From Raillietiella orientalis (Eukaryota), in the NCBI GenBank assembly GCA_036172245.1, contig JAYWIR010000019.1, forward strand, positions 3,472,001-3,536,000: a stretch of 64,000 nucleotides of DNA, read 5' to 3'. The position numbers and the translations under genes are program-made. The notes beneath the pieces are model-generated. The model did no database searches, had not been told where the DNA came from, and saw only the letters and a list, made by a program, of their open reading frames with translations. Of this stretch, positions 45,195 to 56,700 are shown in pieces; position 1 is the first letter of the stretch, and each line of letters starts with the position of its first letter.

Positions 45195-45335
45195 CTATTT
45201 TCCCAACCGGAGGGGAACCACGAAAGGAACCGGTGCTCCTTGATTCCCGGAAGGACCACTGAGGGTCAACTTGCAACCTTGGTTAGTCGACGGGGGTATC
45301 CAGGGGGTTTCCGGCTTCCACCAGTGCCGCACCGG
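45195..45335 (-). mobile_element. 3' half of a SINE-like copy whose head lies at 56551-56700
   Basis: 'ccttgattcccggaaggaccactgagggtcaacttgca..ggtttccggcttccaccagtgccgcaccgg' is homologous to 12843-12935 and to the reverse complement of 29475-29600. Confidence 0.7.
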
Positions 45336-47139
45336 CCATTTTGAAGTTGTCAAGTTTCGTATGCTATTTTAATCTCAATCTATGTTGACTAATAAATATG
45401 CCTTCGGTTGGAACTGCTATAAATTCAGCTCCTTTAGGTAAAACAACTCCGCTGTATGGAAAAAAACAGTAGGGATACTGAATCCCAGCTATATGCAGCA
45501 TTCAGAGTATCCTGCTATTACCAAACAAGATTCTGAAGCTGAACAGGAGGAAAAAAATGGAAAGAAGAAAAGGAGAAAAACCAGGTGGGATAATGACGAT
45601 AGAAAGGAAATTCTTATTTCTATCTATTATATTATCCATTTTTCCTTGCAATCTCTCTAAATCACGAGAAGAAGCATATATCATGTAGCTACAGATTGAA
45701 GAATTGAGTCGCATGCTTAGAACAAGTGACCTGGGAGCCCCGGTCAACCTTGATGAAAGGTCACCATCACCAGAACCAGTAGTGATGGCAAGCGGCTCAA
45801 CACTCGGGGATTTCGTACAAGGAAAAAAAAACTAGAAGATGACCGTCACATGCTGATTCAGAGACTGATGTGCATCAACATGGATTACAAACCACCAGTC
45901 ACTCGAGTGAGTGATAAGGTGATGATTTCTCAAGATACATATCCTGACATAAACTTTATGGGCTTGCTCATAGGTCCCCGGGGAAATATATTGCAAGCAA
46001 TGAAGGAGGATACTGGGATCAAAATTATCATTAGAGGAAAAGGATCCGTGAAGGAAAGCTTGGAAGGAAAGTTGGGCAGCCCTTAACAGGAGAGGATAAG
46101 CCTCTGCATGAATATGTTACTGCACATAACATTGAAAGTGTTAAGAAAGCGGTATATAAAATCGAAGAAATTATTAGACAAGGGACTGGAGTACCAGAAG
46201 GGCAAAATTATTTGCGCAGAAATCAGTTAAGAGAGCTGGCCTTGCTAAATGGGACACTGCGTGAATCAGATGGTTTTCGTTGTACCAACTGTGGTGCCAT
46301 TATGCATAAGTCTTGGCAGTGTCCTGAGAAACCCAACATGACTAACATAACACAGTACTGTGCAGTATCTGTAGGGGAGCTGGTCATATCAGTAAGAACT
46401 GCATGCAGAAAGGTGCTGGCGCTGAAGCATCTAATCTGGACAAGAGCAAAAACAGTTGAAGAGTATATGTCGCTAATGGCACAACTTGGTGAAGGGCCTC
46501 CTTCACCACAAAAGGAAGGCATGACTGCTGCTGCTAGGTCTCGTTTTATGGCAGCAGCATATACCTCAGTAACTCTGTTTGCTCCACGGGTGGCACCTCG
46601 CCAAGTTATGGCTCCACCTCCACAGCCACCAGGTCAAACTGAGTATCCTGAAGGTACAAAACTTGGCAGTCAGCACTGGTCTCAGCATCATCAACAATGA
46701 TGACTCCTTTAGCTCCCCCAGGTGTTTTCGGCTGGAAAATTTTGCCACGAATTCCACCAAGCGCTGCACCTCTACTGCCACCCTCATTACTTCAAGGGCC
46801 TCCTTCATCAACAGCTATGCTGGCTACTACTGGTACTCCTATGGTGAGCCATCTGCTCCAATTCCTCCTTGACATCAATCTCCTCCTCCTCTTCCACTGA
46901 GAATGTCCATGACTCCTTGGCAGAAACTTTCACCTCCACCTGTACCAATGCCACCTCCCAGAGCATCTCTAAATCCTGGTCAGCCACTTCCTTGGTTGCA
47001 AGGATATTCTAATATCCACAATCAGCACAAGTTCCATCCACGTCTTCTGAGAACATAGATTTAAACGCATTAGCACAGGCAGACCTTCCTAATTTTCTGG
47101 CATCTTCCCCACCAGCTCCACCTACTTGACTTGTTTCAT
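45336..47139 (+). pseudogene. SF1: Processed pseudogene of splicing factor 1 (branchpoint-binding protein)
   Basis: ATG 45398 'MPSVGTAINSAPLGK', then 'KKRRKTRW', 'RSPSPEP', KH domain 'YPDINFMGLLIGPRGN..IIIRGKGSVKE', QUA2 'QLRELALLNGTLRE', zinc knuckle 'CTNCGAIMHKSWQC' and a Pro-rich tail ending at TGA 47127-47129. Continuous with no introns; multiple stops and frameshifts. Confidence 0.92.
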
Positions 47140-48075
47140 GTACAACGATGCACTTTGTTCCCGGCGCGTCGGCGCGCGCGGGTGTCCGATCGCGCACCAA
47201 GCTGGGAAGATACGCCTGCGAGGGCGCGTACCTGTAGCGCGCACGCTGGGACCAGAAAGATGGTGAACTGCACCTGGCCAGGACGAAGCCAGAGGAAATT
47301 CTGGCGGAGGTCCGCAGCGGTCCCCATGTGCAAATTGGTCTGGCTGAGAGTTGGATATCTGATTCATGCAGTGTCCCATTTAGGAGCGAAAGACGAATCG
47401 AACCATCTGGTGCATACTGGTTCCCTTTGAAGTTTCCCTCAGGATGGCTGGCGCTCACTGAAGAGGAAAAGGAAAGGAGTCTCATCCGGTAAAGCGACTG
47501 ATTAGAGAACTTGGGGCCAAAATGACCTCAACCTATTCTCAAACTTGAAATGGGCGAGAAGTCCGGCTTGTTTGGAAGCTGGAGATCAACTATCAGATCC
47601 ATGAGCGCTCAGTGGGCCAATTTCGGTAAGCAGAACTGGTTCTGTGGAATGAACCAAGCGTTAGGTTACCGCGCCAGTTGCGACTCTCATCAGATCCTAT
47701 GAAAGGTGCTGGTTGCTATGGACAGCAGCACGGTGGCCATGGAAGTCGGAATACGCTAAGGAGTGTGTAACGACTCACCTGCCGAAGCAACTAGCCCTGA
47801 AAATGGATGGCGCTCAAGCGTCGAGCCTGCACCCAACCGCCGGGACAGAGCCGTTCCTGCCTTCCGGACACGTTCCATCGAGGAAGAGCTGGGCTCAGGG
47901 CTCAGAGGAAGAGGAAGGCTGGTTCCTCAGGTTCCATCGAGTAGGAGGGTAACGACGGTGTGCGCAGAATGGTTTGGGCGTGAGCTCGTCTGGAGCCGCA
48001 GTCAGCGCAGATCTTGGTGATATTAGCAAATACTCCATTGAGATCCTAGAGGTCTGATGTGGAAAGGGTTCCATG
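47140..48075 (+). rRNA. 28S rRNA pseudogene fragment (~0.93 kb)
   Basis: Conserved LSU blocks 'gaaagatggtgaact', 'gaagtttccctcaggat', 'acctattctcaaact', 'ggtaagcagaactgg', 'gctaaggagtgtgtaac.actcacctgccga', 'gcagatcttggtg' and 'agggttccatg', with many substitutions. Confidence 0.95.
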
Positions 48076-54513: not shown

Positions 54514-56550
54514 CAAGGCGGTCGACTGCGTCGATCAGGAGCTTCTTCTGGAGCTGTTGGAATGCTTGGACTTTTTGGCTGCATTGTCAACCTATCTGTG
54601 CTCCACGCGCTCATCAATATCTCTTTCAGAGGGCAGACGGTGCGGTGCGGGATACGGCAGGGCAACAGCCTCAGCTTCTTGCTCCTTAGCACCTATTTCG
54701 AATTGGTGCTGAGAGCATACGGGAGGACTCTGGCTCTCCAACAGCGCGTATGTCCCGGCACACCTGCCGTCTCAGAATATGAGAACGATCTTTTGTTGCT
54801 GCTCCCCATGTCCACCCCAGCATGCGCACTCAACGGCTTTTTCAAGTTGCTCTGCCGCGGGACGGTTTCGCTGGTGAACAGAGCAAAGTCGTGCGTGGTT
54901 CCATTTGGTGCGTCATGGGCAGGGAGGCCATGCTGAATCCACCTAAGGATCCCCACGGGCCTGTGCTTAAAGTACCTAGGCGTTATAATGCGGGACTTCT
55001 GCTCCGCAGAAGCACCCTGTTCTGACCGTCTTTAGAAAGCACTGCAGACGTTCGGCCCGTTCTAAAGATGCAAATTTTACCTGACGGAATGAGCCGTGGT
55101 GTGGAACACATTCGTAACTTCCTCCTCTGCCCCCTACTTCTTGTTTTCCTCCTGCCATGTGTCATCGGAAACCGGACGAAGAACCTCCTCTGGATCGTCC
55201 TTTGGAGCAATGGGGAGCCCCGAGTCCTCCTGAAGGACTTGTGTGCATCGCGCCGGGACGGCTGTCTGGGCCTCTTGACGCTGGAGCAAATGGAGCTGCA
55301 GGTCCAATTTTCTTGTCCTCGTGACAAACCTGGTGCCAACCTACAAGTTTTTTCCTCCAGAAAACCACCAGCAGCGTGGGACTCGCATTCTTCCTTGCGC
55401 GCCCTTCACGCAGTCTCATCCACTGCGGACTGCACTTTCGGCAAGAGGCCATGCAGGCCAGGAAGAACGGATGGATCTCGTGCCACCCCGTGAACAGTGG
55501 TGCCTCGTTGCAGAAAACCGTTCGCATGAGCTGGAAGATGCAGGAGTCAAGCGCAGAACAGATGTGACGTTTCCTGTACGCGCATAACAACCGCATCTTC
55601 CGGGAGATCCTGGAAGATCCCGCGAAGAGTGCGTGGACAAGCAGAATCTCCCTTGCCGTCGCACTGCCCTTCCTTAAGGAGCACATGAGCAACAGCCTTG
55701 AGGCTAGATGGAAGGTTACTGTGGGAACCTCCGGAAGCAGAAAAGGACTGGACGAGTGGACGACGAGTGAACTCACCGACGCTGCGACCCCGAGTGCTCA
55801 GCCTCGCAAACTGTTGCGCTGGGGCGTGTTACTGGGTATTCTGGAGGAAGACCTGCAGTGGCCGCCGATGCTCATGAACATCCGCATTCTCCCCTGAAAG
55901 TGGCAGGGGTCGGCATTGATGCTCCCGTGCTGCAACGCCTGCAGGTATCATTGGACACGAGGGAAGGGGGTAGACCCAAACTGTGCAAGGTACCTCCTAG
56001 TGGACTGTTTTCTCCTCCAGACCTTTTGGGGACGCTCTGCTCAGACCCTTGGATGTCTTGGCAACGGCAGAGACAATTGAAATCGTTTCTTCCTGCACGA
56101 CGCCCTCACGCCGGCCGCATCCCTAGCAGCACTTTGCTGCATACGCGGGATAGTGGCTGCATGGAGCAGCAACGCGAGTCCAGGACCACAGGAACGCCAT
56201 TTATTCTGCTGTCCTCTTTATGAGAATAGCGTCAAGATGGTCCCGTCTGGGAGTTTTGAAAAAGGAACTTGACGTTATCCTTACAAGGATGCGGAGGACG
56301 CCCTTCAGCACACAATGATCCCTTCCCGAACCCCCTCTCCTATTTTTTTGAGTATATGTTTTTTGTTTTATTTTTTTCCTTTTTTGTCCCCCTTCCCCAG
56401 TGCCGCCGAGGCGAACCCCGCTGGCCCGTATGACAGTTCCCGGCAGGTTCCTTCTCGTAGCTATAAGTAACGTCGTGGGATCGAACGTCTTGCCATAGAC
56501 ATATATGTTTATTTTTTATAAATAAACGCCACGGCGTAACCGGGTGTCAA
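54514..56550 (+). mobile_element. Tx1-like ORF2, 3' part (continues 49591-50919)
   Basis: Resumes at 'KAVDCVDQELLLELL', then 'GIRQG', a decayed YADD ('EYEND') and the C-terminal region. Ends 'aaataaacgccacggcgtaaccgggtgtcaa'. Confidence 0.88.
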
Positions 56551-56700
56551 CCAGTGTCTCATCTGAAGCCCATAAGGCAACCGGCGTCATCCTGCGGAGG
56601 GACTTGAAACCCACGACTCACCCCCCATTCTCGGCTTTGATCCTACCGCGGGGGGGGATTCGAACCTGCGTCGCTTGGTGCCACGCGCGGAGATCGTAGG
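56551..56700 (-). mobile_element. tRNA-derived head of the SINE-like repeat
   Basis: Minus strand has 'gcaggttcgaatccc' and a second B-box-like 'gtttcaagtccc'. Confidence 0.7.

Follow-up and report, generated by a model that had tools for sequence, protein, structure and literature searches.

The stretch analysed here, below called the window, comprises 64,000 nucleotides of Raillietiella orientalis (assembly GCA_036172245.1, contig JAYWIR010000019.1, positions 3,472,001 to 3,536,000 of the forward strand). Between positions 45197 and 56700 it contains a mosaic in which a retrocopy of splicing factor 1 (SF1, the branchpoint-binding protein), a 28S rRNA fragment, a piece of a restriction-like endonuclease (RLE)-type element and a Tx1-like long interspersed element (LINE) lie inside one split copy of a short repeat. 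We see an even chance that the locus is a layered mosaic, in which one template switch from the LINE to SF1 was followed by a 28S and RLE block, a U4 small nuclear RNA (snRNA) copy, insertions of a second LINE family and conversion with a further LINE copy (copy B). The analysis is based on the assembled 64-kb window, protein and RNA libraries and the literature. The segments of the mosaic are the following, with the strand in brackets where one applies (TSD, target-site duplication; RT, reverse transcriptase; ORF, open reading frame; SINE, short interspersed element; LTR, long terminal repeat; LSU, large subunit):

45197..45320: left half of a SINE-like interspersed repeat of ~270 bp, the target of the LINE; three further copies in the window align to it at 71-76%
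45321..45335: left-hand member of the outer 15-bp TSD, CCAGTGCCGCACCGG; on the empty repeat (58684-58698) it overlaps with the right-hand one
45336..47139 (+): SF1 retrocopy with leader 45336-45397, ATG at 45398 and stop codon 47127-47129
47140..47152: first copy of a 13-nt direct repeat, GTACAACGATGCA, candidate TSD of the 28S and RLE block
47153..47195: GC-rich filler of 43 nt, outside the Rfam 28S alignment
47196..48104 (+): decayed 28S rRNA fragment, Rfam LSU model positions ~665 to ~1545/1888 (RF02543, 481.7 bits)
48105..49619 (-): 5'-truncated RLE-type non-LTR element with the end of RT, CCHC linker, RLE domain and the C-terminus of the ORF near 48166
49620..49632: second copy of the direct repeat, GTACGACGATGCA (the 13-mer in single-copy form: GTACRACGATGCA)
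49633..49987 (+): segment X, possibly the end of the LINE endonuclease domain; open frame of 117 codons at 49621-49971 with AGDFN
49988..50127 (-): full-length U4 snRNA pseudogene, antisense to the LINE (RF00015, 58.8 bits, model positions 1-138)
50128..50919 (+): family-1 Tx1-like host LINE, comprising the linker and the start of RT; homologous to the library protein P0122 from 50265 on
50920..54000 (-): first nested copy (nested copy 1) from a second Tx1-like family, with an internal deletion; it retains part of a CCHC ORF1, RT and a C-terminal part
54001..54513 (-): a copy of a 12-bp TSD (54001-54012) and, in tandem, nested copy 2, which consists of the second family's final ~500 nt
54514..56550 (+): remainder of the host LINE up to its natural 3' end (...CCGGGTGTCAA), matching residues 231-615 of P0122 in frames 2/1/3/2
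56551..56700: right-hand member of the 15-bp TSD (56551-56565, CCAGTGTCTCATCTG), followed by the right half of the repeat

A split repeat at a recurrent target site

Both outer ends of the mosaic are halves of one interspersed repeat. Using relaxed BLAST settings against an unoccupied copy of this repeat, the left half aligned to 58819-58684 and the right half to 58697-58556, and the same 15 nt were covered by both. Such an overlap on an empty copy is the signature of a target-site duplication, and because the two halves overlap by 15 nt on the uninterrupted copy at 58556-58819, the outer duplication is real; its two copies, CCAGTGCCGCACCGG and CCAGTGTCTCATCTG, are identical at 11/15 positions. 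This confirms the first-pass annotation, in which the repeat broke at 45335 and resumed at 56551 with ~15 nt duplicated. Three further sites in the window are needed for comparison, the LINE of the mosaic being copy A:

58556..58819 (-): unoccupied copy of the repeat (empty site), aligning to both halves of the split copy
12921..14026 (+): copy B, a 5'-truncated family-1 LINE inserted at the equivalent position of another copy of the repeat
28642..29484 (-): copy C, a family-1 LINE that occupies this position in a third copy of the repeat and whose 5' 680 nt are inverted

Each family-1 3' end in the window (3/3) falls on the identical position of the repeat, and 3/4 repeat copies are occupied. 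The LINE 3' end at 56550 is common to copies B and C, and the same target sequence follows in each case. Since the repeat flanks of the copies are 71-80% identical and the LINE parts up to 100%, copies A, B and C are separate insertions into diverged targets and not segmental duplicates. The split repeat is a preferred and recurrent target of the family-1 LINE, and matching flanks are therefore weaker proof of a single event than they would be at a random site. Within copy C, the inverted 680 nt (28767-29446) are separated from the 3' end (28657-28727) by a gap in which ~305 nt are missing, a twin-priming-like arrangement.

The earlier label "SINE" holds in so far as the repeat is short, dispersed and multi-copy, with four copies of ~270 bp at 71-80% identity and one fragment in the 64 kb. 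A tRNA-like head was not detected (ARAGORN, 0 genes; Rfam, nothing at E<=1 on the empty copy), and in this respect the label is unproven. A GGATTCGAACC-like motif, noted by eye, is the only hint of a tRNA-related head.

Segments between the outer duplications

The leftmost segment carries the Pfam domains SF1-HH and KH and has 292 homologues, the best matches being arthropod SF1 proteins with 50-63% identity. With an arthropod SF1 as query, tblastn covered residues ~25-436 without introns, in high-scoring segments of frames 1/2/1/3 with in-frame stops, as in a decayed copy. The conserved natural C-terminal motif aligns up to 47126 and is directly followed by TGA at 47127-47129. The leader in front of the ATG measures 62 nt, and 10 nt lie between the stop codon and the start of the 13-mer repeat. 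These results (Pfam, tblastn and the C-terminus at 47126) bear out the earlier description as an SF1 retrocopy with a 5' leader, ~10 nt past its stop and lacking poly(A). Searches for a poly(A) tail and for a TSD of its own were negative for this copy, and among the features of a processed pseudogene it shows intronlessness and no other. Its left end is flush with the outer duplication, as it starts at 45336, directly after the TSD. A poly(A)-less copy with the full coding sequence (CDS) in this position is best explained by template switching of a LINE reverse transcriptase.

Rfam placed the 28S match in sense orientation at 47196-48098, with the alignment beginning at model position 665 (47196). 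The alignment confidence was high to ~48076 and moderate to ~48104, and the sense 28S piece proposed before (47196 to ~48104, 481.7 bits) is thus well founded. The proposal that the segments join with no spacer DNA failed, since SF1 and 28S are separated by 47140-47195, which comprise the 13-mer repeat and a GC-rich filler of 43 nt. The filler contains a 16/22 match to the LINE 3' tail (CGCGTCGGCGCGCGCGGGTGTC vs CGCCACGGCGTAACCGGGTGTC), and its GGGTGTCC recurs at 50135, beside the 5' end of U4. The shared motif, GGGTGTC(C/A), occurs at 47180, at 50135 and at the LINE 3' end; of these, the first alone approaches significance, with the match reached in 25/500 shuffles.

The next segment lies on the minus strand. 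A domain query derived from it, in which two in-frame stops were entered as X, yielded 305 phmmer matches, located at the C-termini of proteins of ~1000-1300 amino acids; these relatives contain RVT_1 and no apurinic/apyrimidinic endonuclease (APE) domain. The tblastn alignments ran colinearly from 49616-49631 down to 48166-48187 and covered residues 798-1292 of 1298 in P0134, in frames -3/-2/-1/-2, whereas the alignment with P0151 ended at residue 1172 of 1172. For the ORF at 48563-49195 (-), a word-based search of longer proteins found nothing and PDB gave chance matches only. With its RLE region C-terminal to RT and its relatives lacking APE, the piece is by homology an RLE-type non-LTR element, in which CCHC and PD..D/E.K motifs can be read by eye. 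It is 5'-truncated within RT, of which the last ~30 residues are left, and it reaches the natural C-terminus of the ORF, with the 28S at most ~60 nt further.

The first reading had described this element as an antisense piece lacking both ends. Its antisense orientation and 5' truncation stand; the loss of the 3' end does not, as the homology extends to 1292/1298 of P0134 and 1172/1172 of P0151. The hallmark of Utopia elements, a 3' end joined to a U2 snRNA gene, was not found either: the flank is 28S, and Rfam returned no U2 anywhere in the window. Passages of PMC4640811 describe RLE clades as mostly target-specific, some of them for 28S, with precise 3' boundaries. Because the ORF C-terminus lies within ~60 nt of the 28S and RLE elements have such boundaries, the border between the RLE 3' end and 28S has the look of a junction made when the element itself integrated.

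The sequences around seven junctions were compared pairwise (21 pairs), with shuffles as control. The best of the 21 pairs was the 13-mer, whose copies are 12/13 identical and lie exactly at the SF1/28S and RLE/next-segment junctions, the first between the SF1 stop and the filler with 28S, the second exactly where RLE homology ends. This pair was reached by 3/400 shuffles, and the outer duplication by 19/400 in the same test. The 13-mer pattern has only two matches in the window, and 0/100 shuffles gave two. On this sequence evidence, the findings suggest that 28S and the antisense RLE piece may form a separate insertion with a 13-bp duplication of its own. If this duplication is real, removal of 47153-49632 joins SF1 to X, and the primary event would therefore be a bipartite SF1-LINE chimera. 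With the block between the 13-mers removed, SF1 stands beside a segment whose only LINE-like match is AGDFN. The first-pass annotation had proposed one integration and had named separate TSDs around individual segments as an observation that would refute it; GTACAACGATGCA and GTACGACGATGCA do bracket 28S and RLE, with modest statistics. Across the three duplications of the locus, the mismatches fall with nesting depth (4/15, 1/13, 0/12).

Segment X has a GC content of 0.56 and a CpG observed/expected ratio of 0.93, compared to 0.57 and 0.86 for the LINE and 0.44 and 0.33 for SF1; the possibility that X is SF1 3' untranslated region was ruled out on this composition. Pfam at E<=10 and a local hidden Markov model (HMM) of three APE+RT proteins gave nothing for X, PDB gave one chance match, and hhalign aligned 6 columns only, in the AGDFN region. 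No Atlas score exceeded 0.80, and the only Exo_endo_phos clusters ranked 18th and 27th. No similarity was found to the nested LINE upstream of its RT, nor to anything else in the window. For an APE domain of the host LINE, AGDFN in X is the only sign, with no support from Pfam, HMM, PDB or hhalign; the distant relatives P0124 and P0125 carry PF03372.

The antisense U4 copy at 49988-50127 was absent from the earlier list of segments, and its nucleotide 1 adjoins LINE sequence. A second U4-like sequence at 42799-42941 (+; 60.8 bits, model positions 1-138) is 92% identical to it over the first ~73 nt only. The two are either both old pseudogenes or belong to a U4-headed repeat family.

Homology of the host LINE to P0122 starts at 50265 (LLDDEG...), covers residues 46-234 and continues through RT to 50920; it resumes at 54515, at the matching residue of the protein. 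Family 1 is probably Tx1-like. Of the Tx1 ORF2 said to run from ~49590 to its natural 3' end, the 3' end was found as described and the start was not, with homology only from ~50265 and AGDFN alone before it. Between the two LINE parts lie the later nested copies of the earlier annotation, which are two minus-strand tandem copies of a second LINE family with exact 12-bp duplications: CAAGGCGGTCGA occurs in three exact copies (50908-50919, 54001-54012 and 54514-54525). Nested copy 1 matches P0122 residues 142-615 at 66% identity and contains RVT_1 and zf-RVT in Pfam, P0122 being the closest protein with 72% identity to the nested copy. Nested copy 2 is 94% identical to 50903-51415. Metagenome contigs searched with P0122 gave 7 loci, all distant (22-61% over short stretches), which were not used. 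An exact 16-nt duplicate, AGCTTCATTAGCCCGA, is found at 50184-50199, just right of U4, and at 50714-50729 in RT (FISP motif), 530 nt apart, and hints at a rearrangement or a jump within LINE RNA.

Copies A and B, located 42 kb apart, share 415 identical nucleotides (55696-56110 = 13149-13563) and also have stop codons in common. Over 55696-56530 (835 nt) they differ at 6 sites and one indel (0.7%); the similarity is only 70-90% immediately before this stretch and ~80% in the flanking repeat. To judge from the sequences, this pattern looks like recent gene conversion, a common source that had already decayed, or an effect of assembly. Dating of the LINE from the A-B distance was dropped, given the 415 identical nucleotides and shared stop codons, which point to conversion or a shared decayed source.

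For the age of the other segments, we compared the SF1 retrocopy with 40 arthropod orthologues. It differs at 33/136 residues that are invariant among them, with an average of 0.8% in the leave-one-out control. Within residues 118-365, 17/116 invariant residues are changed, a count from which the deleted residues 154-156 and the zone of frame change (214-220) were left out. Using ~2.28 non-synonymous sites per codon, the nucleotide decay of SF1 is ~7% (4-11%). The 28S fragment is decayed by ~10% (42/404 mismatches at upper-case consensus positions, counted by hand on the Rfam alignments), which is partly natural variation. Within the 1.5 kb of the RLE piece the frame changes three times and two stops occur, and the host LINE changes frame at least six times over about 1.9 kb.

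Proposed order of events at the locus

In the layered history to which we give an even chance, a Tx1-like family-1 LINE would have integrated by target-primed reverse transcription at one site of the ~270-bp repeat and generated the 15-bp duplication; the site specificity and the duplication themselves are directly visible in the window. In the same event, the reverse transcriptase would have left the 5'-truncated LINE RNA, switched once to the SF1 mRNA just past its stop codon and copied this mRNA to its 5' end, a step we infer because SF1 has its full CDS, lacks poly(A) and directly adjoins the left duplication. A composite block, made up of sense 28S and an antisense, 5'-truncated RLE element, would have inserted later at the SF1/LINE border with a 13-bp duplication, as the direct repeat at the block borders suggests; the 28S/RLE junction inside the block may represent integration of the RLE element into 28S-derived DNA. 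Nested events would have added the antisense U4 pseudogene and the two tandem copies of the second family, whose perfect 12-bp duplications are present in the assembly. Finally, ~835 nt of the LINE 3' region would have been homogenised with copy B, 42 kb away, to judge from the identity pattern.

Several points weigh against this history. The support for the 13-mer is modest, with ~0.0075 for the pair and ~0.15 over 21 pairs, and the outer TSD is poor (11/15), that of copy B being worse (9/15, by eye). Scans for TSDs found none for U4, RLE alone, SF1 alone, SF1 with 28S, 28S alone or U4-X-RLE, and for U4 and the RLE piece alone no A-tail was seen either. A block of sense 28S and antisense RLE requires a transcript that reads through from an element inserted antisense into rDNA, or another unusual source. 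X resembles the LINE in composition and has AGDFN and an open frame, but no search matched it to LINE sequence; if X is LINE, ~125 linker residues are missing where U4 sits. The old segments are similarly worn, so that age neither supports nor refutes a single event. The comparison of ages proposed in the first-pass annotation did reveal similar decay (SF1 ~7%, 28S ~10%), but this does not support one event, as the ages do not discriminate.

The orientation of the segments bears on all readings with a single cDNA. In a continuous cDNA primed at the LINE 3' end, each template lies in its own sense on the plus strand. SF1, 28S and the LINE are in sense on this strand, while the RLE element and U4 are antisense. 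A single cDNA could thus have acquired the latter two only from RLE and U4 templates that were themselves antisense, and antisense U4 RNA would not be an expected template. Antisense small RNAs in LINE-1 chimeras are ascribed to twin priming in passages of bioRxiv 10.1101/2025.02.02.635956. The geometry of twin priming puts the antisense piece beside the left flank, where sense SF1 and 28S are found here. Of the original interpretation, a TSD-bounded chimera made by a LINE reverse transcriptase inside one repeat can be kept, whereas one integration with at least three serial jumps is not supported. Four templates in one run are probably wrong in view of the inner 13-mer, the antisense RLE and U4, the RLE element's own junction and the recurrent target.

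An extended form of that interpretation would have one cDNA copy the LINE, antisense U4, X, antisense RLE, 28S and SF1 with at least four jumps, some of them onto antisense RNA or the free cDNA of another element, the two young family-2 copies alone being excepted. All pieces do lie inside one duplication pair that matches an empty site, no poly(A) occurs between segments, the old segments are similarly decayed, and passages of bioRxiv 10.1101/2025.02.02.635956 report LINE-1 chimeras with antisense small-RNA pieces whose nucleotide 1 is at the LINE junction. We nevertheless hold this very improbable, as it requires antisense U4 and RLE templates or single-stranded cDNA as template, twin priming would place antisense pieces by the left flank and not between sense pieces, a separate 13-bp direct repeat brackets 28S and RLE, and the RLE piece starts at its own 3' end beside 28S. 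A tripartite origin is unlikely in our view yet to be taken seriously: one LINE event with two jumps would have produced SF1-28S-LINE, all in sense, and an RLE element would later have nicked the 28S and inserted in opposite orientation, perhaps carrying X and full-length U4 at its 5' end as an snRNA chimera of its own. The common sense orientation of SF1, 28S and LINE fits this, as do the RLE 3' end flush with 28S, which is expected for target-primed synthesis from a 28S nick, a U4 that closes the antisense run on its far side and is complete to nucleotide 1, and the similar decay of SF1 and 28S. Precedents appear in passages of bioRxiv 10.1101/2025.02.02.635956 (sense 28S/LINE-1 chimeras, n=18) and of PMC2104539 (tripartite chimeras). 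The tripartite origin leaves to chance, however, a 12/13 direct repeat at exactly both block borders, and it does not explain the 43-nt filler before 28S; Rfam found no 28S remainder right of the antisense run, and the 117-codon plus-strand frame, AGDFN and LINE-like composition of X are unfit for a minus-strand passenger RNA.

The mosaic might also have formed by independent insertions, deletions and ectopic recombination between occupied repeat copies, with no chimera involved and with flanks that may derive from different copies. A site-specific LINE indeed gives every occupied copy equal flanks, the exchange between A and B is clear (415 nt identical inside 70-90% surroundings), the outer TSD differs at 4/15 positions, like two repeat copies 71-80% alike, and the region is dense in nested repeats. 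In such a scenario, however, a deletion must have removed exactly all LINE sequence left of SF1, and SF1 itself has neither poly(A) nor own TSD and starts directly at the left duplication, which makes this origin quite improbable to us. Misjoining of one or more junctions during assembly of this repeat-rich, rDNA-containing region is scarcely credible: the 415-nt identity to copy B could be consensus bleed between repeats, but the ordered junctions, with TSDs, an element 3' end at 28S and U4 complete to nucleotide 1, are unlike random misjoins.

Comparison with known systems and further observations

The kinds of event proposed here have been described before, in passages of PMC2104539 (bipartite and tripartite LINE chimeras flanked by TSDs) and of PMC4494074 (target-specific Tx1 families), and the locus opens no new question. 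With the LINE-mediated chimeric retrogenes treated in PMC2104539 (U6/L1 and mRNA/L1; tripartite in Magnaporthe and mammals), it has in common that a cellular RNA, copied in sense and lacking poly(A), precedes a 5'-truncated LINE, that a short duplication surrounds the whole unit and that the 3' part ends at the natural LINE 3' end. In contrast to the retrogenes in those passages, the LINE is site-specific, Tx1-like and without a poly(A) tail. The partner is here a complete mRNA CDS cut 10-23 nt past its stop, and the unit was later invaded by other elements.

Families of the Tx1 clade often prefer specific targets, including other transposons, according to passages of PMC4494074, which name Tx1 in Tx1D, Tx1-Mar in Mariner-N4_AMi and Keno in U2. 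Repeated insertion at one position of an interspersed repeat, 5'-truncated and tandem copies and associated snRNA sequences recur at our locus. Its target is in contrast a short SINE-like repeat in an arthropod-like genome, with Tx1 a label by likeness only. Like the rDNA-targeting RLE elements covered in passages of PMC4640811 (R2, R4, NeSL-related LIN/R5), the RLE piece has RT followed by a C-terminal CCHC and restriction-like endonuclease and is a 5'-truncated copy with a precise 3' end joined to 28S. It differs in being antisense to 28S, and the pair lies outside rDNA, inside another retro-insertion. The junction near LSU model position ~1545 is presumably not the R2 site. R2-type enzymes jump between templates in vitro. 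An internal sense 28S fragment beside LINE-derived sequence is also known from reported 28S-LINE chimeras; the fragment found here is longer (~900 nt vs 50-482 nt) and attached to an RLE element instead of a LINE.

If the layered history is true, the locus would provide an arthropod example of a Tx1-like LINE that uses a short interspersed repeat as a safe-haven target and makes an mRNA-LINE chimera by template switching, and of rDNA-type RLE elements that leave rDNA with flanking 28S sequence. A single six-piece integration, if true, would exceed in complexity every natural LINE chimera described so far. Where a target is used site-specifically, matching flanks and missing poly(A) are no proof of a single event, and inner junctions need a duplication check of their own.

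The window as a whole is gene-poor and repeat-rich, and the relatives of the SF1 copy point to an arthropod-like genome. Outside the mosaic, a Pfam search of 96 ORFs of >=120 amino acids returned only one zf-RVT. At ~28520-28560 (-), the head of the repeat holding copy C is cut by the 3' tail of another Tx1-like element (...AATAAACG...CCGGGTGAAAA), with an A14 run adjoining. The tail pattern AATAAACG-N-CCGGGTG-NNAA is common to all three LINE families in the window. Upstream of the repeat holding copy B, 12500-12740 consists of tandem units of ~35-40 nt rich in CCGAAGGGAACC, which may be the tail region of the SINE-like repeat. A full-length U6 snRNA match lies at 60383-60487 (-; 88.3 bits, model positions 1-105).

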